Assembly (NCBI RefSeq): GCF_000025925.1
Contig: NC_014033.1
Span: forward strand, 240,001-272,000
DNA from: Xylanibacter ruminicola 23
Lineage (GTDB): Bacteria > Bacteroidota > Bacteroidia > Bacteroidales > Bacteroidaceae
Direction of reading: 5' to 3'
DNA length: 32,000 bases
Shown: in pieces, positions 2,601-22,337 of the stretch
Layout of the letters: each line of letters begins with the position of its first letter
How positions within the stretch are numbered: the first letter of the stretch is position 1
The notes under the pieces: generated by a model
The model's input: only the letters and a program-made list of their open reading frames with translations
Databases searched by the model: none
Told to the model about the DNA's origin: nothing
Program-made: the position numbers and the translations under genes

Positions 2601-3071
2601 ATGGCTACTAAAAACTTATCGGAATACGATATTACCACAGTGCCCGACGCTTCGAACATGATCTTCGGAGTTGTCGTGGCCGAGTGGAATCCCGAAATAA
2701 CTGGCGCCCTGCTCGACGGATGTGTTAGCACACTCGAAAAGCATGGCGCTTTGCCTGAAAATATCCATGTTAAGACGGTGCCTGGTAGCTTCGAGCTGAT
2801 TTATGGCGCTCACCAGATGACCCTTAATGATGGTTACGATGCCGTCATTATTCTTGGTTGCGTGATTCGTGGCGAGACTCCTCACTTCGATTACATCTGC
2901 CAGGGCGTTACCGAGGGTGTGGCTCGTCTTAATGCAACAAGCAATATCCCTGTAGTCTTCGGTTTGCTCACCACCAACGACCAGCAGCAGGCACTCGACC
3001 GTGCCGGTGGCCGCTTGGGTAATAAGGGTGATGAGTGTGCCGTTGTAGCCATCAAGATGGCAAAGTTCTAA
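2601..3071 (+). CDS. ribH: 6,7-dimethyl-8-ribityllumazine synthase
   Basis: 156 aa with [11 protein letters not shown] and [14 protein letters not shown] motifs. Confidence 0.9.
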
Positions 3072-6878: not shown

Positions 6879-8750
6879 ATGAAACCCCTTCGCTTGGCCT
6901 TCAAGCTGCTGGCAGCCTTCCTGCTGCTGGTAGTATTGTTGGTGGGTGCAGGTGTGGTGCTGGTAAATACCAAGGCTTTCCAGCAGCGCGTGCTTAAGCA
7001 AACCACCCAGATGCTGAGCGAGCGCCTGCAAACGCAGGTAAGTATCGATAGTGTCGATATCCGCTTTATGGCACAGCAGCTGCGCCTGTACGGACTGCAT
7101 GTAGCCGACCAACAGCAGCGCCCCCTGCTCACTGTCCGCCAGGCTGGGGTAGATGTAGATATCAGCGAACTGCTGGGTAATAAGTTTACCATCAAGGATG
7201 TCGAGTTGTCGGGGGCCCGCGCCCTGTTGCTCAAGCCCTCCAAGGATTCGGTATCCAACTTCCAGTTCATCATCGATGCCTTTAAAAAGCAACCCAAGGC
7301 CAAACGTGATACCACTGTGGCGCCCCGCAAGCGTATCCAGTTCGATATTCACAGCGTGCGCCTGAATGATATCCAGGTAACCTATAATCAGCTGTCGTTG
7401 CAGCTCGCCCAGGCCCTCATCAAGGGGCGCAAGGGTAAGTATCAGGCGCAAGCCCAGTTGCAGCTGGCTACCGATAATCACAAGCCCCGCAAAAATGCAG
7501 GCAAGCCCAAACGCGGATTCTTCGATGTAGGTCATCTCAATGTCACCTGCCATTTCAAGGCCGCTATCGATGCCACCGAAAAAGACACTCTCCGCTTAAA
7601 TCTCTCTGAGTTGCAGGCCCGCGATTCCATTACCGGTATCGATATCCGCAACCTGCAGGCCCAGGTGCGCTTGGCAGGTAAAAAGCTGCTTTTAAACAAT
7701 GTGCAGGTACAGCAAAAGCACACCCAGCTGCACATTGCCCATGCTGCTATGCAATTGCCCAGTAAGCGCGATAGCATCCCCCTCAGTTTCAGTACAGGCC
7801 CCATCGCTGGCACCGTTTATCTCCAGGATATCTCGCGTGCCTTTGCCCCCGTGCTCAGTAAGTTCACGCTGCCCCTCCAGCTCAGCTGTACTATGAGTGG
7901 TAATCAGGATGTGCTCAGCTTCCGTCAGGTAAAGGTTGGCACCGCCGATAAACGCCTGGCCATCACTGCCACCGGCGATATCACCAACCTCAAGAGCAAG
8001 GAAAAGCTCACCGTGCTGTTTCATGTCAACCGGATGACGGCCAAGAGTGGTATCAAGGAGCGCATCATCAGTCAGTTCCCCGTTAAGCGCCTCATGATGG
8101 CGCAGCTTCATAACTTAGGTAATATCAGCTATGTGGGTAGTTTCCGTGTCATCCGTAAGGAAGAGCGCTTCTGGGGCACCCTTGGCACCGCCGTGGGTAG
8201 TCTTAAGTTCCAGTTCTGGCTCGACGAGCGCAACAAGTATGTCGTAGGTAATGCCAGCACCCGGAAGTTGCATTTTGGTAAGGTCATGGGCATGAAGGAT
8301 GTCGGTCCCCTGGCAGCCAAGGCCGATTTCAAGATTGATATCAGCAAGCCCCGCACCGCCGCCATGCGTCGCAAGTTGGGTGGCAAACTGCCTATAGGTG
8401 CTGTTAATGCCACCATCGATGATTGCAGTTATAAAGGCGTTCATGTGCGCAATGTGGCCGTTACTGTAAATAGCAATGGCGCTGAGGCTACAGGCGATGT
8501 TATCCAGCGTGGCAACTGGCGCGACATCTCCTGTTCATTCTCGTTTACCGATACCAACCAGATGCACAAGCTCAAGGTAAGTCGTGGTCGTATGAAGTTT
8601 CATAAGATGACCGACGAGGCCAAGCAGGCCAAACGCGAGCGCAAAGAGGCCCGTAAAGCCGAGCGCCAGGCCAAGCGCGACGCCAAGAAAGCCGAGAAAG
8701 CCGCCAAGAAAGCCGAGAAATCAAAGAAAAAGTCGTTTTTGTTTTTTTAG
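6879..8750 (+). CDS. AsmA-like envelope protein with a lysine-rich C-terminal tail
   Basis: Has an N-terminal TM anchor (LLAAFLLLVVLLVGAGVVLV) and a long beta-rich body with a repetitive pattern typical of AsmA/TamB-like proteins. The tail is KQAKRERKEARKAERQAKRDAKKAEKAAKKAEKSKKK. Confidence 0.5.
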   Translation: MKPLRLAFKLLAAFLLLVVLLVGAGVVLVNTKAFQQRVLKQTTQMLSERLQTQVSIDSVDIRFMAQQLRLYGLHVADQQQRPLLTVRQAGVDVDISELLGNKFTIKDVELSGARALLLKPSKDSVSNFQFIIDAFKKQPKAKRDTTVAPRKRIQFDIHSVRLNDIQVTYNQLSLQLAQALIKGRKGKYQAQAQLQLATDNHKPRKNAGKPKRGFFDVGHLNVTCHFKAAIDATEKDTLRLNLSELQARDSITGIDIRNLQAQVRLAGKKLLLNNVQVQQKHTQLHIAHAAMQLPSKRDSIPLSFSTGPIAGTVYLQDISRAFAPVLSKFTLPLQLSCTMSGNQDVLSFRQVKVGTADKRLAITATGDITNLKSKEKLTVLFHVNRMTAKSGIKERIISQFPVKRLMMAQLHNLGNISYVGSFRVIRKEERFWGTLGTAVGSLKFQFWLDERNKYVVGNASTRKLHFGKVMGMKDVGPLAAKADFKIDISKPRTAAMRRKLGGKLPIGAVNATIDDCSYKGVHVRNVAVTVNSNGAEATGDVIQRGNWRDISCSFSFTDTNQMHKLKVSRGRMKFHKMTDEAKQAKRERKEARKAERQAKRDAKKAEKAAKKAEKSKKKSFLFF

Positions 8751-10124: not shown

Positions 10125-11726
10125 ATGAAAAAACACTTAGTAATGCTGGCTGCCTTGCTCATGATGGGCACAGCAGGCGCCAATGCTCAGGGATTTCTGG
10201 GCAAACTAAAACAAAAGGCACAGCAAGCCGTTATCGGTAAAAAAGCAACTGCCGAGATAAGCGAGGCTGTGCAGGACGAGAGCGATGAGCCTGCCGACCC
10301 ATCTAAGTTGGCTGTGGCCGCTGGCGACGATATCGTGCCTAAGCGTAAAACCCCTACAGTTACGTGGGATGGAACCTTTACCCCCTCATCGGCCTCGTCG
10401 GCTTCGGCTTTGATGGCCGAGCTGCCACAGTTGCCATCGGCCGAGAAGATGGCCCGCAGCACCATGGAGGAGCGCGATGCCTATGCACTTAAGATAGCCC
10501 GCGTTGTGGCCCGTGCCGAGCAGTTGCAGGAGGGTGCCAACGGATGCTCCGATGCCGATATGGAAGCCCTGCGCCAAAAGTGGGAGCGCAAAGTGCAGGA
10601 TATGTTTGGCCTTACCAAAGAGGAGATGGCTATCCTGAACGATGAGAACGCGCCCGACTCGAAGAAGGAGCCCATCCAGCAAAAAGTGATGGCTAAAATC
10701 ATGGGTGGCAATGTTAACATGAGCGAGATGGAACGCTTTGAGAAGATGAGCGAGAAAGAGCAAGAGGCTTACATCAAGGCTCACCCCGATTTTGTACAGA
10801 AGATGCAGAAGATGGCCATGAATGCTGGCAACTTTAGCAAGCAGATGCAGCAAACTACAGGTGCCCTTACAGGCTATGAGGCTAAGGTGGGACAGCTGGC
10901 TCAAAACTTTGCTAAGGTGATTACGCGCGAGGCCAATCACGATTACAGTGCCATTGGCAAAAAGTACGATAGTAAGTTGCAGAAGCTTTACGAGCAGATA
11001 TGTGGTATAGATGATGCAGCCAAGATTGATGCCCTTTATGATGAGGCCGATCAGTTGCTGTACAACTATCGTTTAGAGGCTGCCAAGGAGTATCGCGCCT
11101 CGCTGCTGCGCCTGATTTCCGAGCACAAGAAGTTTGCTGCCGAATATACCCGCTTGTCGCGTGAGGTGGTTGCCAGTGGCGATCTGCCAGAATGTGCCAT
11201 CGGTCGTGCCGACCTGAATAGCGTGATTGCCGTGGGCAACATCTTAGACCAGGCCTATAAGGATCTGCCCGAGCTGCAGGCATCGCCCGTTTGTCAGGAA
11301 ACCGTCTACGAACTGCCAAAAGGCTGGACATTTGGTGCCTGGGAGTGTCGTGGCTACATTGGTGGCGTAAACGATTTTAAATCACCTGGTGGCAACTGGC
11401 CTTTGTTGGCCCAGAGCGCTGAGGCTGGCGAGTATGCAGTAGTCGAGAATGGCAAGTTCCGCAAGATTAACGAGGATGAGCTGAAGGCCATTAATAAAAA
11501 GGCCGATGCCCGACTGAAGAAGGGCGCTAATTCAGGCACTAACCCACCTTATGGTGTTTATAAGAGTCGTAGTGGCAAGCGCGTTGTAGAGTACTCTAAA
11601 ACGGGCGAGATTATCCTGAATGGTATGACCACCTACGCTCCAGCGGCCTTCACTGCTAACCCCGATCGTTTAGAGTGGATTATCTTCGATGAGGGTAAGA
11701 TTGTAAAGTGTACTTACAAACTGTAA
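10125..11726 (+). CDS. secreted hypothetical protein
   Basis: The signal peptide ends ANAQ. The gene is tightly packed, 11 nt after the OmpA gene and 1 nt before the next ORF. No domain recognised. Confidence 0.6.
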   Translation: MKKHLVMLAALLMMGTAGANAQGFLGKLKQKAQQAVIGKKATAEISEAVQDESDEPADPSKLAVAAGDDIVPKRKTPTVTWDGTFTPSSASSASALMAELPQLPSAEKMARSTMEERDAYALKIARVVARAEQLQEGANGCSDADMEALRQKWERKVQDMFGLTKEEMAILNDENAPDSKKEPIQQKVMAKIMGGNVNMSEMERFEKMSEKEQEAYIKAHPDFVQKMQKMAMNAGNFSKQMQQTTGALTGYEAKVGQLAQNFAKVITREANHDYSAIGKKYDSKLQKLYEQICGIDDAAKIDALYDEADQLLYNYRLEAAKEYRASLLRLISEHKKFAAEYTRLSREVVASGDLPECAIGRADLNSVIAVGNILDQAYKDLPELQASPVCQETVYELPKGWTFGAWECRGYIGGVNDFKSPGGNWPLLAQSAEAGEYAVVENGKFRKINEDELKAINKKADARLKKGANSGTNPPYGVYKSRSGKRVVEYSKTGEIILNGMTTYAPAAFTANPDRLEWIIFDEGKIVKCTYKL

Positions 11727-11727
11727 A

Positions 11728-12426
11728 ATGGTAGGTTTGCGCTATCTCATACTGTGGTTGCTGCTCTTTATGGGCAGCACCACTGTTTTTTCCACACGTT
11801 ATCAAAAAGTGTTTGGTAGCGATTGGACCTCGGCAGCACGTTATGTGGCCGATCACCACGCCGAGTGGCAGCAGGAGTTTGCGCCCTTTGGTGTGGATTC
11901 ACGTTTGGCCGAGGCTATCGTGTTTCCAGAGCTTATCCGCTATTCCATGTGGCAGGACGAGATAGAGCGAGCCGCCGTTAATGGCCTTTATGTTACCAAA
12001 GGCAGTCAGGGTGCCGACTTCTCTATTGGTCGGTTCCAGATGAAACCCTCGTTTGCCGAGCAGGTAGAGCAGGCGTGGAACCGTTCTTCGTTATCCAAGC
12101 AATACGGCTTTGTGTTCAACCTGCAGCCCAACAACCAAGCCCGTCGCTCGCGCATTCGCCGACTCTCCACCATGCAAGGCCAGTGCCGTTATCTGGCCAT
12201 TTTTATCTTGTTACAACAGCAGCGCCATCCCCAGTTGTCCCGTTTGTCGCACAAGGACCAGGTGCGATTCTTAGCCACCGCCTATAACCGCTCCTTTACC
12301 GCCTCCTATAGTCAGATACGCAAAATGCAGCACCACCGCCATTACCACACCGATGTTATCAAAACCCGCAGCACCCGCCTTTACTGCTATGCCGATATCG
12401 CCGTAGCGTATTACAATCAAATATAG
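11728..12426 (+). CDS. secreted hypothetical protein with weak lytic-transglycosylase-like motifs
   Basis: Has a signal/anchor segment. FPELIRYS ... SIGRFQMKP loosely resembles the SLT catalytic Glu and GLMQ motifs. This is a weak call. Confidence 0.45.
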   Translation: MVGLRYLILWLLLFMGSTTVFSTRYQKVFGSDWTSAARYVADHHAEWQQEFAPFGVDSRLAEAIVFPELIRYSMWQDEIERAAVNGLYVTKGSQGADFSIGRFQMKPSFAEQVEQAWNRSSLSKQYGFVFNLQPNNQARRSRIRRLSTMQGQCRYLAIFILLQQQRHPQLSRLSHKDQVRFLATAYNRSFTASYSQIRKMQHHRHYHTDVIKTRSTRLYCYADIAVAYYNQI

Positions 12427-12550: not shown

Positions 12551-12652
12551 CTAAGCCCCGATGCACGATGTCGCGCCCAGGGCCGTTACAATCGCTGTAG
12601 CGATACTGGCAATCATCTGCACGATAAACTTTAATGTTTCTTTCTTTGTCAT
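12551..12652 (-). CDS. 33-aa mini-protein MTKKETLKFIVQMIASIATAIVTALGATSCIGA (small peptide partner of the HU-like gene)
   Basis: Hand-translated ATG...TAG ORF, not in the ORF track because it is under 60 aa. It lies directly downstream of the HU-like gene on the same strand. As I recall, NCBI labels this family 'smalltalk protein'; that recollection is unverified. Confidence 0.5.
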   Translation of the reverse strand: MTKKETLKFIVQMIASIATAIVTALGATSCIGA

Positions 12653-12656
12653 AGCT

Positions 12657-12691
12657 TTTAATGTTTAATGTTTAATGGTCAATGGTCAATG
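12657..12691 (-). repeat. five tandem heptamers (sense: CATTGAC x2, CATTAAA x3) 4 nt upstream of the mini-ORF start
   Basis: Read directly on the + strand: TTTAATG x3 (12657-12677) and GTCAATG x2 (12678-12691). Confidence 0.9.
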
Positions 12692-12695
12692 GATA

Positions 12696-12719
12696 GGGTG
12701 GGGCTTTCGCCCCAAACCC
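12696..12719 (-). other. GC-rich hairpin with a GAAA tetraloop between the HU-like gene and the mini-ORF
   Basis: The minus strand reads GGGTTTGGGGC GAAA GCCCCACCC and begins 1 nt after the HU stop codon. No U-run follows, so an RNA processing or stability element is more likely than a terminator. Confidence 0.5.
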
Positions 12720-13256
12720 TTAGTCTCCGATGGGCTCATTATGGTTTCCACCGCCACCGGTATTGCCACCAGTGTTTCCACCGGTATTACCACCGTTCGA
12801 TGGCTGGTCGGGATCCTCGATATCGCCGCTATCACCGCTGGTCACACGCTTCAGCACTTTGCCATCCTCGTCCAGGCAGGTAATCTGGATGCTGGTATTC
12901 TTCAGCTCGTCCTTAACGTCCACGTTAGGGGTAAAGATAATGCGACGAACACTGATCAATCCAGTCTTTACGTCCTCCAGGTTCTCAACGGCCTTACTGC
13001 GCACTCCGAATCGCATGGTACCCAGACCTGGCAGTGGTACTGAGTGACCCTCGGTGGCCCACGTACGGATTACTTCACCTGCAGCATCCCAAGCTGCCTT
13101 AATTACACCTGCAGAGATACCCGAGTGGGTGGCTGCCTCTGCGAACACTTTCTTCTCCTGGATAGGGCTATACAGCTCAGGACGCATAATGAATCGCTTA
13201 CCAGGTTTGTTGCCGATTTTAAGCTCTCGGCGCTGAGCAATTACTTTAATCGCCAT
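12720..13256 (-). CDS. Bacteroidales HU-related DNA-binding protein with a Gly/Asn/Thr-repeat C-terminal tail
   Basis: The N-terminal 120 aa (KPGKRFIMRPELYS...IRTWATEGHSVPLPGLGTMRFGVRS) match the HU-related family typical of Bacteroides/Prevotella. The tail is SNGGNTGGNTGGNTGGGGN. Confidence 0.75.
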   Translation of the reverse strand: MAIKVIAQRRELKIGNKPGKRFIMRPELYSPIQEKKVFAEAATHSGISAGVIKAAWDAAGEVIRTWATEGHSVPLPGLGTMRFGVRSKAVENLEDVKTGLISVRRIIFTPNVDVKDELKNTSIQITCLDEDGKVLKRVTSGDSGDIEDPDQPSNGGNTGGNTGGNTGGGGNHNEPIGD

Positions 13257-13441
13257 ACTTCTAAAATTTTTAATGGTTAATGTTTGATATTTTCAATAAT
13301 CTCGCTTTGCCGCCTTGGAGTGCAGATTTCAACCGCTATTAGTACTTTCAATTGTTACTATTAATGCGCGCAATTTCTAGATTTAATTCTCGCAATTTTT
13401 AGCCTTAATGCCGCTGCTCTTACTCTCTCAATTTGACAATG

Positions 13442-13449
13442 CAAAGGTA
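13442..13449 (-). promoter_or_regulatory. -7 promoter box (rc TACCTTTG) for the HU-like gene
   Basis: This is the only TAnnTTTG match upstream of 13256 on the minus strand. It implies a leader of about 180 nt with no ATG. Confidence 0.45.
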
Positions 13450-13528
13450 CGAAAAATTCAGCATATATACAAGCGTTTGTTCATTTTATTTTTAATTTAT
13501 TTCTACATAGATTTACCACTACCGAGCA

Positions 13529-13553
13529 CCTAACGTCCTAACGTTCTAACATT
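13529..13553 (+). repeat. CTAAC repeat block CCTAACGTCCTAACGTTCTAACATT
   Basis: Read directly. It shares CTAACGTCCTAAC with 21808-21820. Confidence 0.9.
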
Positions 13554-13595
13554 GCGATTTCTCAATTATCCCATCACCTATCAATACTCTCTATA

Positions 13596-13647
13596 AATAT
13601 ATATTATTATATTATATATTATAATATATAATATAATAATATATATT
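13596..13647. repeat. perfect 52-bp palindrome composed only of A and T
   Basis: Checked base by base about the centre at 13621/13622. All 26 pairs are complementary, and the symmetry breaks at 13595/13648. Confidence 0.95.
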
Positions 13648-13658
13648 CTAATAAGCAC

Positions 13659-13716
13659 GTTAGTTACTACCTAACAAAATACCAAATGTTAGTTTGTTAG
13701 GTGGTTAGATGGTTAG
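13659..13716. repeat. GTTAG repeat block (inverted relative to 13529-13553), including a 9-bp inverted repeat CCTAACAAA/TTTGTTAGG
   Basis: Read directly. 13685-13701 is the reverse complement of CCTAACAAACTAACATT at 21823-21839. The 9-bp stem is 13670-13678 with 13693-13701. Confidence 0.9.
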
Positions 13717-13724
13717 GTGGATTG

Positions 13725-14897
13725 CTAATACGTTAGTCCAAACTGCCAAAGGGGGATGATGTTGGCATGGCCTGTTTCGATATCGTCTTTCACTACGTAG
13801 CCTTGGGCTGCATTTTGTATCTGTTTCTGCTTCTTACTTTTTCCGCCCACCTCAAAGGTCTTGCCGTCTATTTCGAAATCGCTTATTCGTGAACTGATGA
13901 CATCAGTAGTTACACGCATCTGATTGTAGAAGAAAGTCTCGCGGATGTTGCCAATGTCGGTACTCTCATGTCCAAGTACATAGGCCAGGTTCGTGTTGTC
14001 AAGATATACTTTCTCTACCTTTCCTAAGCCACGTATGCCGCCAGTATCGTCGCGTAGTTGTCCTATCATACCAGCCTGTTCCATGTAGAGGAAGTAGTCG
14101 GGTAGCACGTTGCGACTTACACCTATAACTGTGGCCAACGACTCCATGACAGGTTTAAAGGGTACACTCTGTGCTATCACGGCCAGTAGCTTCTTTAGTT
14201 TGCGGCCTGTTGATGCGTTCATATTCGCATATTGGGGAATGTCTACCTCCATTGTTTGGTTGATAACCTGGCGCATACGCATCTCGTAGCCACCCTCGTT
14301 TGCAAATGGATAGTAGCCGTTTTTTAGATAATCCCTGAATAGTGGTAGAGGATGATTGATGGCATCAAGTTTCGCTTTATGCTCCAGGATATCGTTGATG
14401 GTATATACCGGGGCGTTTATGTTATGAAATAATGCCAGATATTCTCGGAAAGAAAGTCCCTGCATGGTATATATCAGCGTACGTCGGCTCAGGTCGGATG
14501 CTCCTTTTGTGATATCAAGTATGGATGAGCCTGTGAATCCAACCTTCAAGTCTGGATGAGAGTCATAGATGAGTTTCAATTCTCGCGACCAGTTCTCGTA
14601 TTTATGAATCTCGTCGATGAATATCTGCTCACCACCGTCTTTTACAAACTCATCTACAGTGGCGATAAGTGTGTGGGTTGAGAAATACAGATGGTCGGCA
14701 GCTACATATAGCATGTGCCGCTTGTCTCTGTTCTCCTTGATGTATTGCAGGATCATTGTTGACTTTCCCACACCACGTGGGCCAACAAGTCCAAACATTC
14801 TCGACTCCCAACTCACCTGATCGTACATATACCGATGGAATGTTGAAGTGGTTAACTTCAACTGACTCTCCATGAATTCAATAAGCGAAATATCCAT
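13725..14897 (-). CDS. AAA+ ATPase of the AAA_14/DUF4143 type
   Basis: Walker A is LVGPRGVGKST and Walker B is IFIDEIH. Length and C-terminal region are typical of DUF4143 ATPases. Start set at MDISLIEF (14897), since the ORF-track extension runs across the promoter and operators. Confidence 0.8.
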   Translation of the reverse strand: MDISLIEFMESQLKLTTSTFHRYMYDQVSWESRMFGLVGPRGVGKSTMILQYIKENRDKRHMLYVAADHLYFSTHTLIATVDEFVKDGGEQIFIDEIHKYENWSRELKLIYDSHPDLKVGFTGSSILDITKGASDLSRRTLIYTMQGLSFREYLALFHNINAPVYTINDILEHKAKLDAINHPLPLFRDYLKNGYYPFANEGGYEMRMRQVINQTMEVDIPQYANMNASTGRKLKKLLAVIAQSVPFKPVMESLATVIGVSRNVLPDYFLYMEQAGMIGQLRDDTGGIRGLGKVEKVYLDNTNLAYVLGHESTDIGNIRETFFYNQMRVTTDVISSRISDFEIDGKTFEVGGKSKKQKQIQNAAQGYVVKDDIETGHANIIPLWQFGLTY

Positions 14898-14918
14898 AAT
14901 CGTTATATTTTTTTGCTG

Positions 14919-14926
14919 CAAATATA
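14919..14926 (-). promoter_or_regulatory. -7 promoter box (rc TATATTTG) of the ATPase gene
   Basis: A TAnnTTTG match lies 22 nt upstream of the ATG at 14897. Confidence 0.5.
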
Positions 14927-14932
14927 ATAAAA

Positions 14933-14983
14933 ATGCACTATGGTAGTGCATAAAACAATAGAAAAGTGCACTAAAATAGTGCA
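14933..14983. promoter_or_regulatory. two copies of the palindrome TGCACTA-N3-TAGTGCA (operator-like)
   Basis: The copies are at 14934-14950 (arms extend to 8 bp) and 14967-14983, with centres 33 bp apart. The proximal copy abuts the -7 box. Confidence 0.5.
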
Positions 14984-15098
14984 ATTTAACGATTTTTTAC
15001 GGAAAACCTTTGAAAATGAACTTTCTTGCTTAGCAAGCCCATGTGCTAAATTGTCTTAATATATTTCCTGCATCTTTTGTTAGGTGCAGGATTATTTG

Positions 15099-15106
15099 TA
15101 CTTTTG
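15099..15106 (+). promoter_or_regulatory. -7 promoter box TACTTTTG for the orphan ORF pair
   Basis: TAnnTTTG with a TTTG at 15076-15079 in a plausible -33 position. It lies about 125 nt upstream of the ATG at 15233. Confidence 0.4.
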
Positions 15107-15171
15107 TGTACTTAAATTAATTTGAATTAATCAATGGCTAAGAACAACAAAAACCAAATAGAGGTTGAACC

Positions 15172-15188
15172 GGTCACAAAATGTGACC
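15172..15188. promoter_or_regulatory. palindrome GGTCACA-AAA-TGTGACC in the leader of the orphan pair
   Basis: Perfect 7-N3-7 inverted repeat with the same geometry as the ATPase operators but a different sequence. Confidence 0.45.
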
Positions 15189-15232
15189 AGTTAGGAATAA
15201 TATTTGGACTGTTATAATAAGATATGTAATAT

Positions 15233-16309
15233 ATGGAAACAAAAGACATAAAACAACTTCAGTATGAAAACAAAAAACTGAAGAAGGAGTATGGTAGGCT
15301 GCTTGAAGAGATTCAGCGCTTATGGAGATTTAAGAAGGAAACAAAGCTGTTTTCTTCTGAGTATATGAAACGTCTGCAGCAGACTGACCTTAGGAAAAAG
15401 GTGTTTGAAGGTACTGACTTTACTATTTTTAAAGGCATTAATGAAAGCGATAGCAGGCAGTTTATGCTTTACAATATAGAAAAGATAATTGGTCAGCAGC
15501 CAAATGGTGATGCAGCCCAGAAGTACGTATCGCAAATATATGGTGAGAAAAAACTGTTGGATTTAGACGAACCATTCCCGTTTATACCTATGGAGAATGT
15601 GGATGGCTGGCTTCTTGATATGGTAAGGCTGATGGGATGCTTGATGGGGCAGAACCCTTGGGGAAAGTGCTTTTCGTTAAGATGGCTCAGCTCTAGGTTT
15701 GAGGCTGGAACTGGAGACGATCCGTATCAGTTCTCACCAGAAAACGAAGAACTTTTGTATTGGCTGGAGGTTACGGAATATAGAAGAATAGCTGCGCTTG
15801 TCGCCAAGATGGTAGAAAGTATAACTATGCTCGAATACCAGAGAATATCTTCGGCTGTTTATGATTATATATGGGAGAAACTACATGGCTTTATCCCTGA
15901 TTGGGCCAATGTAGACCAATGTAATTCGTATATCAATAGCCTGCTTGATATAATAAATAATGTAAACGCCCATATCAAGGAAGGTGCACAACGTGGGCTC
16001 TGTATCGAAGAAGTTGGGCTGATTGACTCACTTTGGGGTGATGTGAATCATACCTACCATAAAGACTATTTAGCTGCAACTAAGGAGATTTGGCAGAAGA
16101 TAAAGCCTGTTCGTGATAGTTTTTGTGATGGCGGCAGGAATCGAGAGAATTATCAATTATTCGTTAACGATATGCTTAAAATTGCTCTGCCGATTGCAGA
16201 GCAATACAATCTTGACATGGAACTTGACGATGAACATAGTCTACCGTTGAGTTATCTTAAGTATTGGTTGGAATCAATTTATTGTTACGATGATTACCGC
16301 CTTGAATAA
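15233..16309 (+). CDS. orphan protein A (358 aa) with an N-terminal coiled coil
   Basis: Long ORF with no competing frame. AT-rich: hand count 35 G+C in 15241-15340, against 56 in 7021-7120. No motif recognised. Confidence 0.7.
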   Translation: METKDIKQLQYENKKLKKEYGRLLEEIQRLWRFKKETKLFSSEYMKRLQQTDLRKKVFEGTDFTIFKGINESDSRQFMLYNIEKIIGQQPNGDAAQKYVSQIYGEKKLLDLDEPFPFIPMENVDGWLLDMVRLMGCLMGQNPWGKCFSLRWLSSRFEAGTGDDPYQFSPENEELLYWLEVTEYRRIAALVAKMVESITMLEYQRISSAVYDYIWEKLHGFIPDWANVDQCNSYINSLLDIINNVNAHIKEGAQRGLCIEEVGLIDSLWGDVNHTYHKDYLAATKEIWQKIKPVRDSFCDGGRNRENYQLFVNDMLKIALPIAEQYNLDMELDDEHSLPLSYLKYWLESIYCYDDYRLE

Positions 16310-17135
16310 AGAACCACTAATACCACGTGGCGACTATTCGCCAGTAGTACGTGATAGGATTAACCGGTTAAAGCAAGATGCCGATCGGTTATTCTCATTG
16401 GGTGCAGTTCGAAAGCGATGTCAGCAGGCTTTAGTGCAGTTTTACGCCAATCTTAAGCCAGAACCATACGTAGATCTGCGCACTCAGCTATCTAACAATA
16501 GGGAGTATCGCTTTGCGCAAAGTCTTACGCTTACCTATAGATCTACCAACGATAGACTGGTACAATGGGCAAAGGGGTGCATGAGCGAATATCTGCTGCA
16601 AGAAGCTATTGAGGAGCGCGAGCGGTTGATTGAGAATTTTGCGCGTATTAAACTTGCCAGCCGCTGGTATCAGATGAAAGACGATGATGAGGCTTGGCGT
16701 GTGTTCTCGCAAAACATACCCTATGACGATGCCGACAGGGAGAAAGAAATAGATGAGTTTTTTGAAACGCTGGATATCCTTTGTATCCTGACAGATGTGA
16801 TTAACGGCCATGCTGCAGAGTACGGACTTGATGTAGACTACCATACGCGTACTTTGACGGGAGTTTTAGCCTCAGAAAAAGCGGTGAAATACTGGAAACA
16901 ACTGGTAGAACAGCAGTTTGTTGACCAGCACTACATGCTATTGGCAAGCACTACTCGCCAGCAAGCAATGTATATTGCAGAACTATTTGCAGAAACGCTG
17001 GAACTGGAAGACAAATGGAAAACTTTTGAAGACTTCTGGGGTATCAACAATCTGGCCCAGGAGAAGTATAAATGCACAGAGTTAGGCAAGTTACCTGCCC
17101 GCTCTGATGTTATCGATATGATTTTCAAAGATTAA
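16290..17135 (+). CDS. orphan protein B (281 aa), start overlapping A by 20 nt
   Basis: The ATG at 16290 lies inside the end of A, which suggests translational coupling. A terminator follows. No motif recognised. Confidence 0.7.
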   Translation: MITALNKEPLIPRGDYSPVVRDRINRLKQDADRLFSLGAVRKRCQQALVQFYANLKPEPYVDLRTQLSNNREYRFAQSLTLTYRSTNDRLVQWAKGCMSEYLLQEAIEERERLIENFARIKLASRWYQMKDDDEAWRVFSQNIPYDDADREKEIDEFFETLDILCILTDVINGHAAEYGLDVDYHTRTLTGVLASEKAVKYWKQLVEQQFVDQHYMLLASTTRQQAMYIAELFAETLELEDKWKTFEDFWGINNLAQEKYKCTELGKLPARSDVIDMIFKD

Positions 17136-17162
17136 TATAACTGCCTGATAATCAATATAAGT

Positions 17163-17210
17163 GTCCCCTATATAGTCCCTACTATAGCCCCTATTATAGC
17201 CCCTATATAG
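17163..17210 (+). repeat. four tandem 12-mers: GTCCCCTATATA, GTCCCTACTATA, GCCCCTATTATA, GCCCCTATATAG
   Basis: Read directly. The last copy forms the 5' arm of the terminator hairpin. Confidence 0.9.
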
Positions 17211-17221
17211 GGGCTTTTTTT
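17198..17221 (+). terminator. intrinsic terminator of the A-B operon
   Basis: AGCCCCTA (17198-17205) pairs with TAGGGGCT (17208-17215), followed by seven T. Confidence 0.75.
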
Positions 17222-17234
17222 GTTTTAATAGCCG

Positions 17235-17242
17235 TACCTTTG
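17235..17242 (+). promoter_or_regulatory. -7 promoter box TACCTTTG
   Basis: TAnnTTTG immediately after the terminator. It overlaps the ORF-track start at 17240, which favours the ATG at 17342. Confidence 0.45.
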
Positions 17243-17341
17243 CCGTCGATAAGAATTTTATGTTTAATCCGAGTGGGGTGGGAGTCCTCTGAGGTGAAAA
17301 GCTGCAGCAATCATGCTCTTCTCACAAAACACTTGGAAAAG

Positions 17342-17824
17342 ATGAAACAAGTAGTATTGCGTATCGACGACGCAGCTTTTGAGAAGTTTATGGGTATGGT
17401 AGATCTATGCCCGATGGTTGAGGTGCTGAATGTTTGCAGCACTGGCGACAAGAAACTTACCATTGATACCTATGTGGCATCGGCCATACGCGAAATGCGA
17501 CAGGCCCTGGCTTTTAAGAACCCCTGCGACTATGCTTACCTGATGGTGGCTATGAACGAGAGCGTGGTAAAAGGATTGCCCTTTTTCTATACCCCCAAAG
17601 ATTTTATCGACTATATGCACCAATCTGATTTTGATAATCTGCCTGGTCGCACCACCATCTACGATACCATAGCTAAGGTAAAAGGAAAGTACCCCGACTG
17701 GACGTTTACCGATAGCCCCAAAGCCAGCGAGGCACTGCGCAGAAAGAACTTGGTGAAGCGATTTTTGAGTGCCTTTATGAGGGCTCAAAACAATAAGTCG
17801 GACGGTTGGTCGGACGAAGCTTAA
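17342..17824 (+). CDS. hypothetical protein (160 aa)
   Basis: The start MKQVVLRIDD lies downstream of the promoter box. The antisense 197-aa ORF looks non-protein-like. Confidence 0.6.
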   Translation: MKQVVLRIDDAAFEKFMGMVDLCPMVEVLNVCSTGDKKLTIDTYVASAIREMRQALAFKNPCDYAYLMVAMNESVVKGLPFFYTPKDFIDYMHQSDFDNLPGRTTIYDTIAKVKGKYPDWTFTDSPKASEALRRKNLVKRFLSAFMRAQNNKSDGWSDEA

Positions 17825-17848
17825 AGGTGTCGGACGATACGTCGGACA
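17797..17848 (+). repeat. four direct copies of GTCGGAC(G/A) with 12/20/12-nt spacing
   Basis: The copies start at 17797, 17809, 17829 and 17841. They straddle the stop codon at 17822-17824. Confidence 0.9.
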
Positions 17849-18015
17849 ATAGAAAATAAAGCCATCGTGGGGTGAATTTTTATTGCGAACTTTGCCGATG
17901 AAATCAGCGAGAACAGGCTGCACCTCAGCAATTCGAGCGAGCTCGATTGCATTCGGTTTGCACTGTCCTTGCATCGTCGAAAGGAAAAAACGACGCAAAT
18001 TTAAAATTAAAAGTT

Positions 18016-18336
18016 ATGGTAAGACAAAGTATTTTTGAAAAGAGAAAAGGCGGTCAGTTCATCTTCGAAGATGAAGACCTGATGAGAGTACAGTGCTTGG
18101 AACATGATGCCGAGAGCGTGATGTGCCAACTGGAGAACAAATTAAGCCAACCGTTGCTGTTTATGCTTAACCAACAGCTGTTAGGGTTCAGCAGCCAGAT
18201 GCAACAAGAACTGGCAATGGATATGGTTGACTATGTGTGCGACGATGTGATACGAATGACGGGATGCCCATCGGCTGATTACGTATTGGAAACGTGTTAC
18301 GCATGGATAGAGGAAGAGCAGGGAGGTGTAGCGTGA
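18016..18336 (+). CDS. hypothetical protein (106 aa)
   Basis: ATG at 18016 after an A-rich leader. The stop TGA overlaps the next ATG (TGATG). Confidence 0.55.
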   Translation: MVRQSIFEKRKGGQFIFEDEDLMRVQCLEHDAESVMCQLENKLSQPLLFMLNQQLLGFSSQMQQELAMDMVDYVCDDVIRMTGCPSADYVLETCYAWIEEEQGGVA

Positions 18337-18566
18337 TGGAACAGATAGTTAATGCCTATCACATTAAGGTGAACAAATGCTGTGCATCGTGCAAGCATAA
18401 GGAAAGCCAGAATGATGGTACAAGGCAGTGCACTAAGACGGGGCAGATAGTAGAGGCGAAATCGGTATGCCCTGAGTGGGAAATGAACGACTGTCTGCGT
18501 AATGCAGGCTTGCAAAAGGGAGCCGTGGTTCGCCTGAAAGGAACTACAGAAATAGTAATATGTTAA
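18336..18566 (+). CDS. small Cys-rich protein (76 aa), possible zinc ribbon
   Basis: KCCASCKH ... RQCTKTG ... SVCPEW gives a four-or-more-Cys pattern. The start is coupled to the preceding stop. Confidence 0.55.
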   Translation: MEQIVNAYHIKVNKCCASCKHKESQNDGTRQCTKTGQIVEAKSVCPEWEMNDCLRNAGLQKGAVVRLKGTTEIVIC

Positions 18567-18597
18567 ACATTAAACATTAAAGATTAAACATTAAAGA
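18563..18597 (+). repeat. five tandem heptamers TTAAACA/TTAAAGA (CATTAAA register) ending 3 nt before the ATG at 18601
   Basis: Read directly. The unit and orientation relative to the downstream start match 12657-12677. Confidence 0.9.
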
Positions 18598-18600
18598 GTT

Positions 18601-18912
18601 ATGAAGAAAATGACAAAAATTGAAAAGATGGTGCGCATGTTTAGCGGCACCGACGATATTGAAAAGCAGTTTGCTAATGATGTACAGACTTGGGGTGATG
18701 AGTTTACAGCTATAGCCGATAAGCTCGACATCCGTAACCCCTGGGATCAGGCTGTGCTGGTGGCTATTTTTACCAACATGCTGGCATGTATAACGGTTAA
18801 CGCCATGTTTGATGGTGTGAACTTGGAGAAGGCTATACGTGATAACTATTATGATGCCTTGAAGGAATACAAGAAACAGGCTGCAAGGGAAATTGCGAAA
18901 GGTAACATCTAA
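18601..18912 (+). CDS. hypothetical protein (103 aa)
   Basis: Clean ORF on the same strand as its neighbours. No motif recognised. Confidence 0.55.
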   Translation: MKKMTKIEKMVRMFSGTDDIEKQFANDVQTWGDEFTAIADKLDIRNPWDQAVLVAIFTNMLACITVNAMFDGVNLEKAIRDNYYDALKEYKKQAAREIAKGNI

Positions 18913-19014
18913 GAAAGGTAAGTAAATAACCGAGTCGAAGTGTGGTGGAGGAAGTCTACGTAGTGAAAATGGCCAAATTCTAACACAACCCTTCACTCAT
19001 CAATTCGACAAGTT

Positions 19015-19335
19015 ATGAAAAAATATATTGCTATTGACGAAGAGGTTCTTGTGCGCCTCGTTGAAGGAAAGCGCGTAGAGGGTTCACTACATCGTGACAA
19101 GTTTACGGGAGTGATAACATTTAATGCCTATAAGCGTAAGTCGCGTAATTGCGCGAACGACCGCCTGGTAAAAAAGTTGCCATGGGGCTGGGTTAAGGAG
19201 AGTATACAGCGTATCAAGGTGTATGGCAGTTTCCCCAAAGAATTGGGTGCTGCAGCAGTGATGGGGCTGATGGACGATCACCATCGCGACGCCAAGAATG
19301 CGATGATAGAACGTGAACTGATTGAATTCTGCTAA
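19015..19335 (+). CDS. hypothetical protein (106 aa)
   Basis: Clean ORF directly upstream of the primase-like gene. No motif recognised. Confidence 0.55.
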   Translation: MKKYIAIDEEVLVRLVEGKRVEGSLHRDKFTGVITFNAYKRKSRNCANDRLVKKLPWGWVKESIQRIKVYGSFPKELGAAAVMGLMDDHHRDAKNAMIERELIEFC

Positions 19336-19372
19336 GGCTTAATTCAAAATTGATAATTGAAAATTTAAGATT

Positions 19373-21811
19373 ATGTTTTGCTATCAGAAAAACTTTAGTA
19401 ACCCCACCTTGCCGGTAGATGAGACTCAGTTCTGGGCTCTTGTTAAGGCCACCAAGTGGAACGAGAATATCGATAAGTATCGCGAAACGGGCGATGCAGC
19501 GTTGAAACGCAAACTGCCTGCATTCATCTTTCAGGCTACTTTCGACGAAACAACATCGGCCAAAGGTAGATTAGGTGCCTGGCGCAAACAGGCAGCCACC
19601 CGCTTAACGGGCCTGGTGGTGATGGATCTCGACCATATCGAGAACCCGTTAACCCTGTATCAGGGCTGGATAGATAAAGGCCTCGACCTGAAGGCATTGG
19701 GCATTGTGCTCGTGTATATCACACCCAGTGGAAAGGGATTGAAGATTGTGTTCAAGGCCCGACTGGATTGGGGCAACCTGATTGATAATCAGCACGCTAT
19801 GGCCAAACTGCTGGGCGACGAGGTGGTAGTGGATGAGGCCTGCAAGGACTCGTCGAGAATGAGTTACATTTGCAAATATACCGATATTTTATTTATTGAT
19901 AAAGAACTGTTTAGTTATGAGAACCAAGAGTATGCTGAGCGATATACTGCTCTATATCGAGACGGTCGCTCACAGAGCGAGAGTGCGAATCTTCCAGAAA
20001 CATCAACTCCCATCGAGCATAGTAACGAACCTGTAATGTGGCGTGGATATGATGTACAGTGTATTATTGATAAGCGCTATGGCGATAAGCTGCCATGCCG
20101 AGAGGATAGAAACAGACATAACGAAAGCCTCAAGTTGGCCTCTGATCTGCTCACACTACTCGACGGCGATAGGGTTGATGTGCAGCGAGTGCTCGAAAAG
20201 CAGACGTGGGTACAGGAACTCATCAGCGAGGGCGAAAGGGTGGAGAATACCATATCGAGTGCCGTTGAGCACAAACGCGATAAGGAGAAGAAATTCCTTA
20301 ATCAGCTGCCCAGTAAGCCCATGCTTGAGGCTATCCAGGAGGTTACGGGTAAGACGTGCCAGGAGATTACGAAGGGCACGAAAGCGTCAACGGCGGCGGT
20401 GCTGAAGGATGATACCATGGCACAGATGCTGTGGGAATGGGGTGAAGAGATTGAGGCCCTGAGTGAGTACTATCCAGCCCTGAAGGATGTGTGCAAGGGC
20501 TTGAAGCACAACCAGTACCCAGCGGCCCTGTTTGTAGCAGGCGGCCTGTTGATGACGCTGATGACACGTTGCACGTACCGCTTTTACCATCGACCAGAAG
20601 AGTTGCGACGATTGAACAACTCAACGCTGATAATTGGCGATCCTGCCAGTGGTAAGAGTTTTGCCACCCGCTTGTTTAAACTGCTGGCAGCACCTATTAT
20701 TGAGGCTGATAAAGTAGGTAAAGAGGCTATTAATGCCTATCGCGAGCAGATGCGCACCAAGGGCGCTAACAAGGAGAAGCCTAAGAAACCTAAGGTTATC
20801 GTACGTGTACACCCTGCACGAACCAGTAATGCCCAGTTTATACAGGACATGGTGAACAGTGTAGAGGAGGTGGATGGCGAGCCCATGCAGCTGCACATGC
20901 TGACGTTTGATACCGAGTTGGATAACACTATCTGTGTACAGAAGGGTGGTAGCTGGATCGACAAGCAGAGCATGGAACTGAAGGCGTTCCATAACGAGGA
21001 AGATGGACAGGCATACTCGAACAACGACTCTATCCTGCAGGATTTCTTCGTGACCTGGAACTACATCTACACAGGTACGCCCATCGCGCTGAAAAAGAAG
21101 GTGAACGCGCAGAACTTCGGCTCAGGACTGGCTACCCGACTGACCTGCATTCCGCTGCCTGCTACCAACTTTAAGATGATGACGCGCGAAAGTAATGTGG
21201 ATTACGATAGCGACAACCGCTTAAAGGAATGGGCTAAGAAGCTGGACCGTACCAAGGGCGAACTCTCAGTTCAGAAGCTGGTAGATGAACTCTACGACTG
21301 GACAGCCCGTCGAATGGCCGATGCAGAAGAGAACGACAGCAAAGCCGACGAGATGCTGCTGAAACGTTGTGCCTACCATGGCTTGAACTTCTCGGCTCCG
21401 TTTATCGTGATGCGCCACTGGGGCGATCTGCATCAGGAAGGCAACTACTGGTGTGGTACATTCGAGACGGACGAAATAGATTGGCGACTGGCTGAACTGA
21501 TAGTAAACATACAGTATGCCTGCCAGCGATACTACTTTGGTGCGATGGCCGAAGCCTACTTCGACAACAAACTGAAGGATGCCAGCGTAAACGTGCAGCG
21601 TCGTCAGAAAACCTACGAAGGTTTCGAGCGACTGCCCGATGTGTTTACAACCGACGATGTGGTTCGTTGCTTCCAGCTAAAGAGTGCTGCTACAGCCTAT
21701 ATGCGAATAAGTCGTTTGACCAAGGATCGACTAATAGAAAAGGCCGAAGACTATGTTGAAGATGGATGCGCCAAGGTGCGCTATCGTAAAACCGGTCTGC
21801 TCATGATCTAA
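19373..21811 (+). CDS. VirE-N/BT4734-like N-terminal domain plus P-loop NTPase (primase-helicase-like replication protein)
   Basis: The N-terminus PAFIFQATFDE...RLTGLVVMDLDHIENP fits the VirE_N/BT4734-like type. Walker A is GDPASGKSF at about residue 420. The 812-aa architecture is common in Bacteroidales cassettes that carry HU-like genes. Confidence 0.75.
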   Translation: MFCYQKNFSNPTLPVDETQFWALVKATKWNENIDKYRETGDAALKRKLPAFIFQATFDETTSAKGRLGAWRKQAATRLTGLVVMDLDHIENPLTLYQGWIDKGLDLKALGIVLVYITPSGKGLKIVFKARLDWGNLIDNQHAMAKLLGDEVVVDEACKDSSRMSYICKYTDILFIDKELFSYENQEYAERYTALYRDGRSQSESANLPETSTPIEHSNEPVMWRGYDVQCIIDKRYGDKLPCREDRNRHNESLKLASDLLTLLDGDRVDVQRVLEKQTWVQELISEGERVENTISSAVEHKRDKEKKFLNQLPSKPMLEAIQEVTGKTCQEITKGTKASTAAVLKDDTMAQMLWEWGEEIEALSEYYPALKDVCKGLKHNQYPAALFVAGGLLMTLMTRCTYRFYHRPEELRRLNNSTLIIGDPASGKSFATRLFKLLAAPIIEADKVGKEAINAYREQMRTKGANKEKPKKPKVIVRVHPARTSNAQFIQDMVNSVEEVDGEPMQLHMLTFDTELDNTICVQKGGSWIDKQSMELKAFHNEEDGQAYSNNDSILQDFFVTWNYIYTGTPIALKKKVNAQNFGSGLATRLTCIPLPATNFKMMTRESNVDYDSDNRLKEWAKKLDRTKGELSVQKLVDELYDWTARRMADAEENDSKADEMLLKRCAYHGLNFSAPFIVMRHWGDLHQEGNYWCGTFETDEIDWRLAELIVNIQYACQRYYFGAMAEAYFDNKLKDASVNVQRRQKTYEGFERLPDVFTTDDVVRCFQLKSAATAYMRISRLTKDRLIEKAEDYVEDGCAKVRYRKTGLLMI

Positions 21812-21839
21812 CGTCCTAACATCCTAACAAACTAACATT
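21808..21839 (+). repeat. CTAAC repeat block CTAACGTCCTAACATCCTAACAAACTAACATT
   Basis: Read directly. It starts at the primase-like stop codon and relates to 13529-13553 (direct) and 13685-13701 (inverted). Confidence 0.9.
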
Positions 21840-21896
21840 AAGAAAAAGGAACAGATAGTACAGTTAAATAGTAAAGCAAACCTCTCCCAGCACTTC

Positions 21897-22319
21897 GTGC
21901 TCGAGGAGTTCACCAGGAGCAAGTATCCTGAGGTGTATAACATTCCCAGTCACGAGGTTATTGCAAATCTGAAGCGGTTGTGTGAGTGGTTGGAAGTGCT
22001 GCGCAAGCGTTATAATGATAAATATGGAGAGGGAGAAGATCCTATCCGTATTAACTCTGGGTATCGCAGTCCGCAGTTGAATCGCAAAGTGGGGGGAGCC
22101 CCCACCAGTAATCACTTAACGGGCTGTGCGGTGGATATTCGCACCAATGGTATGGAGCAGGCAATAGAATATGCAGCCATATTGATAGCCTATGCCAATG
22201 AATCGGCACAGGACTATGATGAACTGCTGATAGAAAAAAATCGCTATGGTGCCGTGTGGTTGCACTTCGCCGTGCGCCCCAAAGATAATCGTAGAAAAGT
22301 AGCGTTTATACAAGCGTAG
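21897..22319 (+). CDS. peptidase M15 (zinc D-Ala-D-Ala carboxypeptidase/endolysin-like); start codon uncertain
   Basis: NSGYRSPQLNRKVGGAPTSNHLTGCAVD plus a later WLHFAV gives the H..D..H zinc ligands of the M15 family. The frame is open from 21828, but the only canonical start is the GTG at 21897. Confidence 0.75.
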   Translation: MLEEFTRSKYPEVYNIPSHEVIANLKRLCEWLEVLRKRYNDKYGEGEDPIRINSGYRSPQLNRKVGGAPTSNHLTGCAVDIRTNGMEQAIEYAAILIAYANESAQDYDELLIEKNRYGAVWLHFAVRPKDNRRKVAFIQA

Positions 22320-22337
22320 TATAAATGATATAAGCAG

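Follow-up and report, generated by a model that had tools for sequence, protein, structure and literature searches.

A translationally coupled pair of hypothetical genes and its possible role as a replicase-linked accessory module of a Prevotellaceae island

Xylanibacter ruminicola 23 carries, within a 32,000-nucleotide stretch of its genome (NCBI RefSeq assembly GCF_000025925.1, contig NC_014033.1, positions 240,001 to 272,000; this whole stretch is called the window, and positions are counted from its first letter), two overlapping genes, here named A and B, which bear the label 'hypothetical protein' in every source. The results of the current analysis indicate that A and B belong to the conserved backbone of a discrete genomic island, where they stand upstream of the gene for a primase-helicase that we regard as the island replicase, and that B is composed of a constant N-terminal domain (the B N-domain) and an exchangeable C-terminal domain (in the window, the C module). 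We tentatively propose, with less than even confidence, that the two proteins form an accessory or regulatory complex of the island that is linked to its replicase. The evidence for the pair as a conserved unit is described first, followed by the island that surrounds it and by the alternatives to this proposal.

A and B are genuine genes under purifying selection. Their open reading frames (ORFs) lie where an earlier note on this DNA, made from the letters alone, had placed them, with the ATG of B inside the 3' end of A (Table 1), and in homologous loci the junction is kept as an overlap or an abutment, ranging from a 26-nt overlap to a 6-nt gap. That note had called the pair an orphan, which proved to be wrong, as relatives number about 100 for A and over 165 for B (the latter counted as 90%-identity clusters). 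For A, 31 close relatives were found in a collection of 5.8 billion proteins, and an exhaustive profile search of 1.84 billion representatives yielded a family of 103 clusters at 50% identity; A is the founder of this uncharacterised family, whose proteins are of ~320 aa. In the few named genomes, the relatives of A and B all belong to Prevotellaceae or Paludibacteraceae, and the closest genome matches were to Xylanibacter (Prevotella) ruminicola and to other rumen Prevotellaceae or Paludibacteraceae metagenome-assembled genomes (MAGs). The ratio of nonsynonymous to synonymous substitution rates (dN/dS) relative to a homologous locus, L001, was 0.14 for A and 0.05 for the B N-domain; handles of this form denote our comparison loci, which were drawn from assemblies, genomes and metagenomes and hold 33 distinct full-length A genes. 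The conservation and purifying selection that the earlier note had left in question are therefore both present.

The synteny of A and B is essentially obligatory and is linked to the replicase. Where at least 900 nt of sequence is available downstream of A, a gene with a B N-domain follows directly in 29 of 30 loci, the remaining A gene being followed by one for a protein that carries the C module, and a primase-helicase homologue lies no more than 6 kb downstream in all 13 loci that extend for 6 kb or more. Dozens of intact syntenic copies were found, down to 40% identity or less, and even in distant family members detected with profiles alone (L020 and L021) the order A, B, replicase (about 780-830 aa) is kept; nothing separates the last two genes in L020, and the gaps in L021 are all non-coding. 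Pairwise identities of A vary together with those of the B N-domain (Spearman 0.73 over 33 loci, and 0.83 over the 16 loci with a replicase), whereas A follows the replicase little (0.20) and the value for the B N-domain against the replicase is 0.47; these coefficients are descriptive, because locus pairs are non-independent. This pattern indicates that A and the B N-domain are inherited together, and may also co-evolve in that way, while the replicase beside them is exchanged. GenBank phages and the plasmids of PLSDB contain no match to A, the B N-domain or the replicase, IMG/VR has none to A or the B N-domain, and our literature search found no publication describing A, B or the island.

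The modular architecture of B emerged from BLAST and hidden Markov model (HMM) analysis. The earlier note had taken the last ~90 aa of B for a separable module and had the impression that similar tails occur on other Bacteroidales proteins; both impressions were sound. Residues 188-281 align on their own to the C-terminal ends (71-78% identity) of proteins of 200, 304, 348, 439 and 484 aa, whose N-terminal parts are different from that of B or related to it in part only, and about 100 other relatives share residues 1-184 alone, a region marked by the motifs ASRWYQMKDDDxAWRVF and ILTD..GHAxEYGL. Across 106 N-domain sequences, i.e. 105 database relatives and the B of the window, at least nine unrelated tail families of 54-194 aa are attached to the constant domain. 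The C module itself is found in 52 clusters of mostly short proteins (about 55-170 aa), many of which are stand-alone. Three of the other tail families, as well as the C module of the window, also occur as stand-alone ORFs at the same operon position in other islands. For instance, the tail of P0084 is a free-standing ORF of 221 aa in L001, that of P0048/P0062 is one of 188 aa in L012, and the window C module is one of 161 aa in the Prevotella island L008. Homologues of the C module (E ~1e-19) are furthermore encoded in temperate phage contigs of IMG/VR, upstream of replication genes and between the integrase gene and a gene for an excisionase-like (Xis-like) helix-turn-helix protein; in three such phages of Bacteroidales type (L053, L054 and L057), three different N-terminal regions carry the homologue, and these proteins have no PHROG family. 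A HIRAN-like N-terminus was considered for the C-module carriers of 439 and 484 aa, but was dropped, as Pfam gives it no support and, in L012, the ORF that really is HIRAN belongs to another gene.

Neither protein resembles a known family. Queries of Pfam, NCBIfam, PHROGs and PADLOC with A, B, the tail variants, 60 distant relatives of A and 24 C modules yielded nothing significant, and A and B were without credible match, family or catalytic signature in these libraries. The best library scores were at chance level (e.g. Cleaved_Adhesin, E = 0.015-0.07; type IV Cas11, E = 0.0011, 17 bits). The claim that nuclease, nucleoside triphosphatase (NTPase) and protease signatures are missing is thus upheld, and the profile searches made for each protein and for the C-terminus of B led to no characterised family. 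Sequence-profile searches of the PDB with four profiles (A close, A wide, B and the C module) came back empty, and Foldseek gave no fold match, the best E values being 0.36 for A and 2.2 for B against the PDB and 0.34 for A against BFVD, with template modelling scores (TM) below 0.27. A, the B N-domain and the C module are three new domain families.

The predicted structures agree with the all-helical appearance that the earlier note had read from the letters. The AlphaFold2 model of A, computed from family alignments, is all-helical and confident, with a predicted local distance difference test score (pLDDT) of 84.3 and a predicted template modelling score (pTM) of 0.83, and that of B, likewise from family alignments, is all-helical and of moderate confidence (pLDDT 76.2, pTM 0.62); within B, the N-domain reaches a pLDDT of 84-93 over most of its length and the C module is modelled weakly. 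The heptad-like coiled coil proposed for the start of A is partly supported, in that a long helix is predicted there, but most of the family lacks it: the N-terminal extension, with an isoelectric point (pI) of 9.8, is present in 13 of 30 aligned A proteins, and the family core begins near residue 50. Signal peptides and transmembrane segments are missing, as had been claimed, since neither protein has a hydrophobic N-terminus or signal peptide and the maximum Kyte-Doolittle mean over 19 residues is 0.71 in A and 1.05 in B, with no transmembrane segment evident. Both proteins are acidic (the pI of B is ~5), which fits protein-protein contacts better than DNA binding.

The pair lies within an island that is low in guanine and cytosine (GC). 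The GC content around A and B is 0.37-0.46 against ~0.51 in the flanks, and housekeeping genes stand on both sides. Homology with the closely related copies in L014 and L018 has sharp limits and covers only the segment from about 12570 to 21858/22326, the flanks being unrelated, which indicates a discrete island in different chromosomal contexts. Its gene order is smalltalk, HU-HIG, variable cargo, A-B, small ORFs, primase-helicase (PrimPol-helicase) and M15 peptidase, and of the small ORFs just those of 90 and 106 aa are found again in distantly related islands (L001 and L006). No integrase, transposase or other recombinase was detected among the ORFs of 12551-22326, and no att-like flanking direct repeats were found at the island ends; movement of such islands by recombination between paralogous copies is a possibility. 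Arrays of CTAACNNN lie on either side of an AT palindrome and again at the end of the replicase gene (Table 1); by chance, none would be expected in the window. These repeats look like an iteron-type origin with a second replicase-binding site, and the context of iteron arrays, AT palindrome and PrimPol fits a replicon, island replication being putative. The islands form an uncharacterised, apparently replicative, integrase-less family of rumen and gut Prevotellaceae.

Signals for transcription were also recognised around the pair. Upstream of A, a match to TAnnTTTG provides a candidate A-B promoter; this motif is the Bacteroidetes -7 promoter box, and its function here is a prediction. After B there is a conserved non-coding cassette, made up of a CTGATAATCA(G) palindrome, a hairpin with a T-run and a TAnnTTTG box, and the same arrangement is found after every C-module gene examined. 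The promoter box before A and the hairpin with its T-run after B suggest that A-B is its own two-gene transcription unit. In 6 of 6 pairwise comparisons, conservation is higher in the cassette than at third-codon positions within the C module (between the window and L008, 0.61 for the cassette and 0.30 for the third-codon positions), and a search of the island in Rfam, cassette included, gave no match. The cassette might act as a small RNA, or as a terminator-promoter junction that includes an operator.

In the mechanism that we propose, A and B would be co-translated, non-enzymatic subunits of the island backbone module that work with the island primase-helicase, most likely controlling or assisting replication or induction; alternatively, the complex might act by recruiting a host or helper factor. 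The constant core would consist of A in contact with the B N-domain, and the exchangeable C-terminal domain of B would be the adaptor end, meeting a variable partner, i.e. a host, helper-phage or island protein, or possibly the conserved DNA cassette beside its gene. We infer three things here, namely that A binds B physically, that the complex serves replication or regulation, and that the tail is an adaptor. The earlier note had suggested a stoichiometric complex rather than enzymes, such as a toxin/immunity or sensor/effector pair. Its core idea is retained, the pair behaving as one unit by synteny and co-divergence and lacking an enzyme signature, whereas the toxin/immunity and sensor/effector versions find no support, since the pair is a conserved backbone element beside a primase-helicase and has no toxin, nuclease or NTPase domain.

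Several observations weigh against our proposal. In Xylanibacter ruminicola Ga6B6, a deletion (L018, 10001-10357) takes the first two thirds of A and nearly all of B, while the HU-HIG gene, the ATPase gene, the downstream ORFs and the replicase are 90-96% identical to those of the window, and in a MAG (L019, 8619-9517) A is a pseudogene, split into fragments of 204 and 45 aa, beside an intact B; the pair is therefore dispensable for keeping the island. In L008, the stand-alone C module is preceded by two proteins of 329 and 253 aa without detectable similarity to A or B, so that the module is not strictly dependent on them. Co-inheritance alone can explain the co-divergence of A and the B N-domain. 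Finally, residues D211, H247, D265 and Y341 of A are near-invariant across 60 relatives whose identity to the A of the window goes down to 11% (median ~20%); they could mark an unrecognised active or ligand-binding site, which makes 'non-enzymatic' a tentative description.

Among the alternatives, the one that survives best, although it is unlikely, is that A-B is a defence, abortive-infection or toxin-antitoxin (TA)-like system, in which one partner senses and the polymorphic tail of B is the effector. The neighbourhood speaks for it, as the slot between HU-HIG and A is variable and filled with restriction or defence-type genes. This cargo includes an MmeI-like restriction-modification (RM) enzyme, BanI, Mrr and a methylase, a PLD-DEAD helicase (DUF3427) with NUDIX, WYL and Sel1 proteins, Bro-N, and an AAA_14 ATPase (PDC-S01), and related islands with the C module only hold GmrSD (L012) and HicB (L008). 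The genes of the pair are translationally coupled and probably co-transcribed, as in type II TA and polymorphic-toxin/immunity pairs, and a constant N-terminal domain with polymorphic C-terminal domains is formally like polymorphic toxins. However, A-B stands in the conserved backbone, outside the variable cargo, and is fixed beside the replicase rather than scattered. A and B are acidic proteins, large for type II TA partners, with no credible PADLOC, Pfam or PHROG match; they show neither a toxin or antitoxin domain nor the fold of a DNA-binding antitoxin, a toxin, a nuclease or an NTPase. Unlike polymorphic toxins, they lack a secretion signal, and no immunity gene co-varies with the tail. 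What follows a C-module carrier varies from island to island in gene size and annotation, and in the window the gene after the tail is without a homologue in the first nine comparison loci, which speaks against conservation of a cognate immunity gene. The intact B beside a broken A in L019 argues against B as a toxin neutralised by A, both genes were lost in Ga6B6 with the rest of the island kept, and tails also exist as free-standing genes.

Next in order, and rather unlikely, comes the reading that A-B is the conserved control module of undescribed integrase-less, self-replicating 'HU-PrimPol' islands of Bacteroidales, in which A:B would license the primase-helicase at the island iterons. 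Phage infection or DNA damage would be the trigger, the C-terminal domain of B, which is shared with temperate phages, would be the sensor, and the island with its defence cargo would be amplified in situ or as an episome.

Less probable again is the possibility that A and B are satellite proteins directed at a helper phage, i.e. helical scaffold or redirecting factors, or antirepressor-type factors, which would hijack or derepress a helper prophage. Sid, Psu and epsilon of P4 and CpmAB of Staphylococcus aureus pathogenicity islands (SaPIs) would be the analogues. Phage satellites combine a pri-rep-ori segment with accessory genes and a defence hotspot, and, quite apart from the helper-phage reading, the island appears most like their replication part, as in the pri-rep-ori of phage-inducible chromosomal islands (PICIs) and SaPIs or P4 alpha with Cnr. 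The likeness lies in the large primase-helicase, the short iterons that flank an AT-rich stretch (a predicted ori), the second iteron set just 3' of the replicase gene, the small accessory genes upstream and the variable defence hotspot, the latter being described for P4-like satellites (PMC9122126). The endolysin-like gene and the lack of capsid genes complete a satellite-like gene set, A and B are all-helical by prediction, the C module is common to temperate phages, and in L004 and L010 genes of antirepressor type (Bro-N and ANT) are neighbours of the A/B position. Unlike known satellites, and against the helper-phage reading, the island has no integrase, att sites, terminase or other packaging-related gene, nor a recognisable repressor/antirepressor pair; its replicase is a BT4734-like archaeo-eukaryotic primase (AEP) rather than of the DnaG/Pri-Rep type, and its left end is a HU-HIG and smalltalk pair. 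No helper is known, and A and B have no known counterpart in satellites. A and the B N-domain are missing from the phage and viral collections, and the model of A has no fold similarity to the viral proteins of BFVD. B resembles the viral regulators of the Bro-N/ANT/KilA type in having a constant domain with many alternative partner domains, and such domains are encoded on their own as well, in the early regions of phages and islands. Unlike those regulators, A, B, the C module and the tail variants gave no match in profile scans to Bro-N, ANT, KilA-N or Rha, Bro-N and ANT being found in neighbouring genes only.

Lower still in our estimate is the reading of A as an unrecognised all-alpha enzyme or ligand-binding protein, with B as its regulatory or targeting subunit and no specific tie to replication. 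Besides the near-invariant residues named above, it can appeal to weak matches to T1RH-like_C (PF11867, the C-terminal helical domain of HsdR) in two of the 60 A family members. One of these, P0305, is a marginal relative of A and scores 22.6 bits, below the Pfam gathering cut-off of 26.8; the other, with a best E of 2.3e-6, is another marginal member of the wide A family. The A of the window itself has no match to this domain in the Pfam scan, BLASTP of P0305 against the C-terminus of EcoKI HsdR found nothing, and A and B have no profile or fold match to any enzyme family. The last alternative, in which A-B is cargo without a function that decays within a dead element, could point to the loss or breakage of A/B in two genomes and to the lack of an integrase, but it is already disfavoured by the selection and synteny data (dN/dS 0.05-0.16, dozens of intact syntenic copies) as well as by the confident structure models, and we consider it very improbable.

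If A-B is indeed an accessory or control module, it offers a handle on a very common and unstudied Bacteroidales element. To our knowledge, gene sets running from smalltalk/HU-HIG through a VirE-DUF3987 primase to a cell-wall hydrolase are seen everywhere by annotators and have been explained by nobody. Because the islands carry a restriction and defence hotspot, their replication and movement bear on phage resistance in rumen and gut Prevotella. The three domain families would add whole-protein models without a solved analogue. If, on the other hand, the pair is an ordinary uncharacterised early-operon accessory, its value is modest and at the level of a catalogue.

The island agrees with the Bacteroidales sets of HU-HIG, smalltalk, DUF3987-VirE primase and amidase genes in having a smalltalk peptide (NF033879), a HU-HIG protein (PF18291), a BT4734-like/DUF3987 replicase and a cell-wall hydrolase. 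The expansion of HU-HIG proteins has been proposed to be related to conflicts with invasive DNA, in a report that found their genes almost without conserved operon partners (PMC5499826). Here, in contrast to that report, HU-HIG and smalltalk delimit a defined island on its left, and the backbone of this island has A-B as an addition centred on Prevotellaceae.

Table 1. Positions of the pair, of its island and of corresponding features in comparison loci.
Feature	Sequence	Position	Strand	Remarks
Gene A	window	15233..16309	+	358 aa, ATG start, all-alpha acidic protein, pI 5.0
N-terminal long helix of A, residues 6-38	window	15248..15346	+	basic, heptad-like, lineage-specific; from predicted model and alignment
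A/B overlap	window	16290..16309	+	20 nt, A stop region with B start; translational coupling
Gene B	window	16290..17135	+	281 aa, ATG start, helical, two modules
B N-domain, residues 1-184	window	16290..16841	+	constant module, always after an A gene
B C module, residues 188-281	window	16851..17132	+	autonomous domain
Candidate A-B promoter, TACTTTTG	window	15099..15106	+	TAnnTTTG match, 127 nt upstream of A start codon
Conserved non-coding cassette after B	window	17144..17242	+	travels with C module in other islands
CTGATAATCA half-palindrome	window	17144-17154		within cassette
CCCCTATATAG...CCCCTATATAGGGG hairpin and T-run	window	17165-17221		within cassette; strong, terminator-like
TACCTTTG, -7 box (TAnnTTTG)	window	17235-17242		end of cassette
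Cassette copies	L008; L010; L012; L014	~10490-10600; ~10610-10720; ~7750-7860; 11912-12010
Island	window	12551-22326		9.8 kb, low GC, without integrase
Smalltalk peptide, MTKKETLKFIVQMIASIATAIVTALGATSCIGA	window	12551-12652	-	33 aa; NCBIfam NF033879, E = 6e-13; previously unlisted ORF
HU-HIG DNA-binding protein (PF18291)	window	12720-13256	-	island left end; profile match
Ori-like region	window	13530..13717	.	(CTAACNNN)x3, AT palindrome, inverted (CTAACNNN)x4; repeat search
(CTAACNNN)x3	window	13530-13551
AT palindrome	window	13596-13647		perfect, 26-nt; flanked by CTAACNNN arrays
Inverted (CTAACNNN)x4	window	13688-13717
Cargo slot: AAA_14/DUF4143 ATPase	window	13725..14984	-	match to PADLOC candidate PDC-S01
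Five small ORFs between B and replicase	window	17240..19335	+
Cys-rich 90-aa ORF	window	18294-18566	+	CxxC...C...C, Zn-ribbon-like by eye
106-aa ORF	window	19015-19335	+
Primase-helicase, island replicase	window	19373..21811	+	812 aa; BT4734-like AEP N-domain and DUF3987-like P-loop region
Third iteron-like array, (CTAACNNN)x4	window	21808..21838	+	starts inside replicase stop codon
Peptidase_M15_3 / endolysin-like gene	window	21897..22319	+	island right end
Cargo slots	L001; L004; L006; L010; L014	1-9776; 2735-9232; 5628-8814; 5173-8910; 2344-9723
Cargo upstream of C-module genes	L008; L012	4475-8247; 1-6264
C-module carriers of phages (IMG/VR)	L053; L054; L057	1550-2206; 1171-2055; 4501-5142

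Some minor features of the islands were also noted. The smalltalk ORF lies just downstream of the HU-HIG gene, like the DUF6486 peptides in L006, L008 and L010. The C module was considered as an iteron binder and rejected, because it is acidic and because the iterons differ among islands that have it in common. The layout of tandem repeats recurs among islands, with an octamer or heptamer motif that differs from island to island. The full layout, i.e. an inverted pair of arrays by the HU-HIG gene or locus start and an array at or beyond the end of the replicase, is seen in L008 (3666-3812 and 13752-13773) and L019 (303-457 and 15709-15730), and a partial one in L001, where an array comes right after the replicase (18989-19018), and in L010, where heptamer arrays are inverted and one comes directly behind the replicase (2965-3026 and 13783-13848). 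In the window, heptamer repeats (TTAAACA / TGTTTAA and AATGGTC) stand on both flanks of the HU-HIG gene (12657-12693 and 13265-13293), and heptamer repeats in inverted orientation occupy the intergenic region before a 103-aa ORF (18563-18597).

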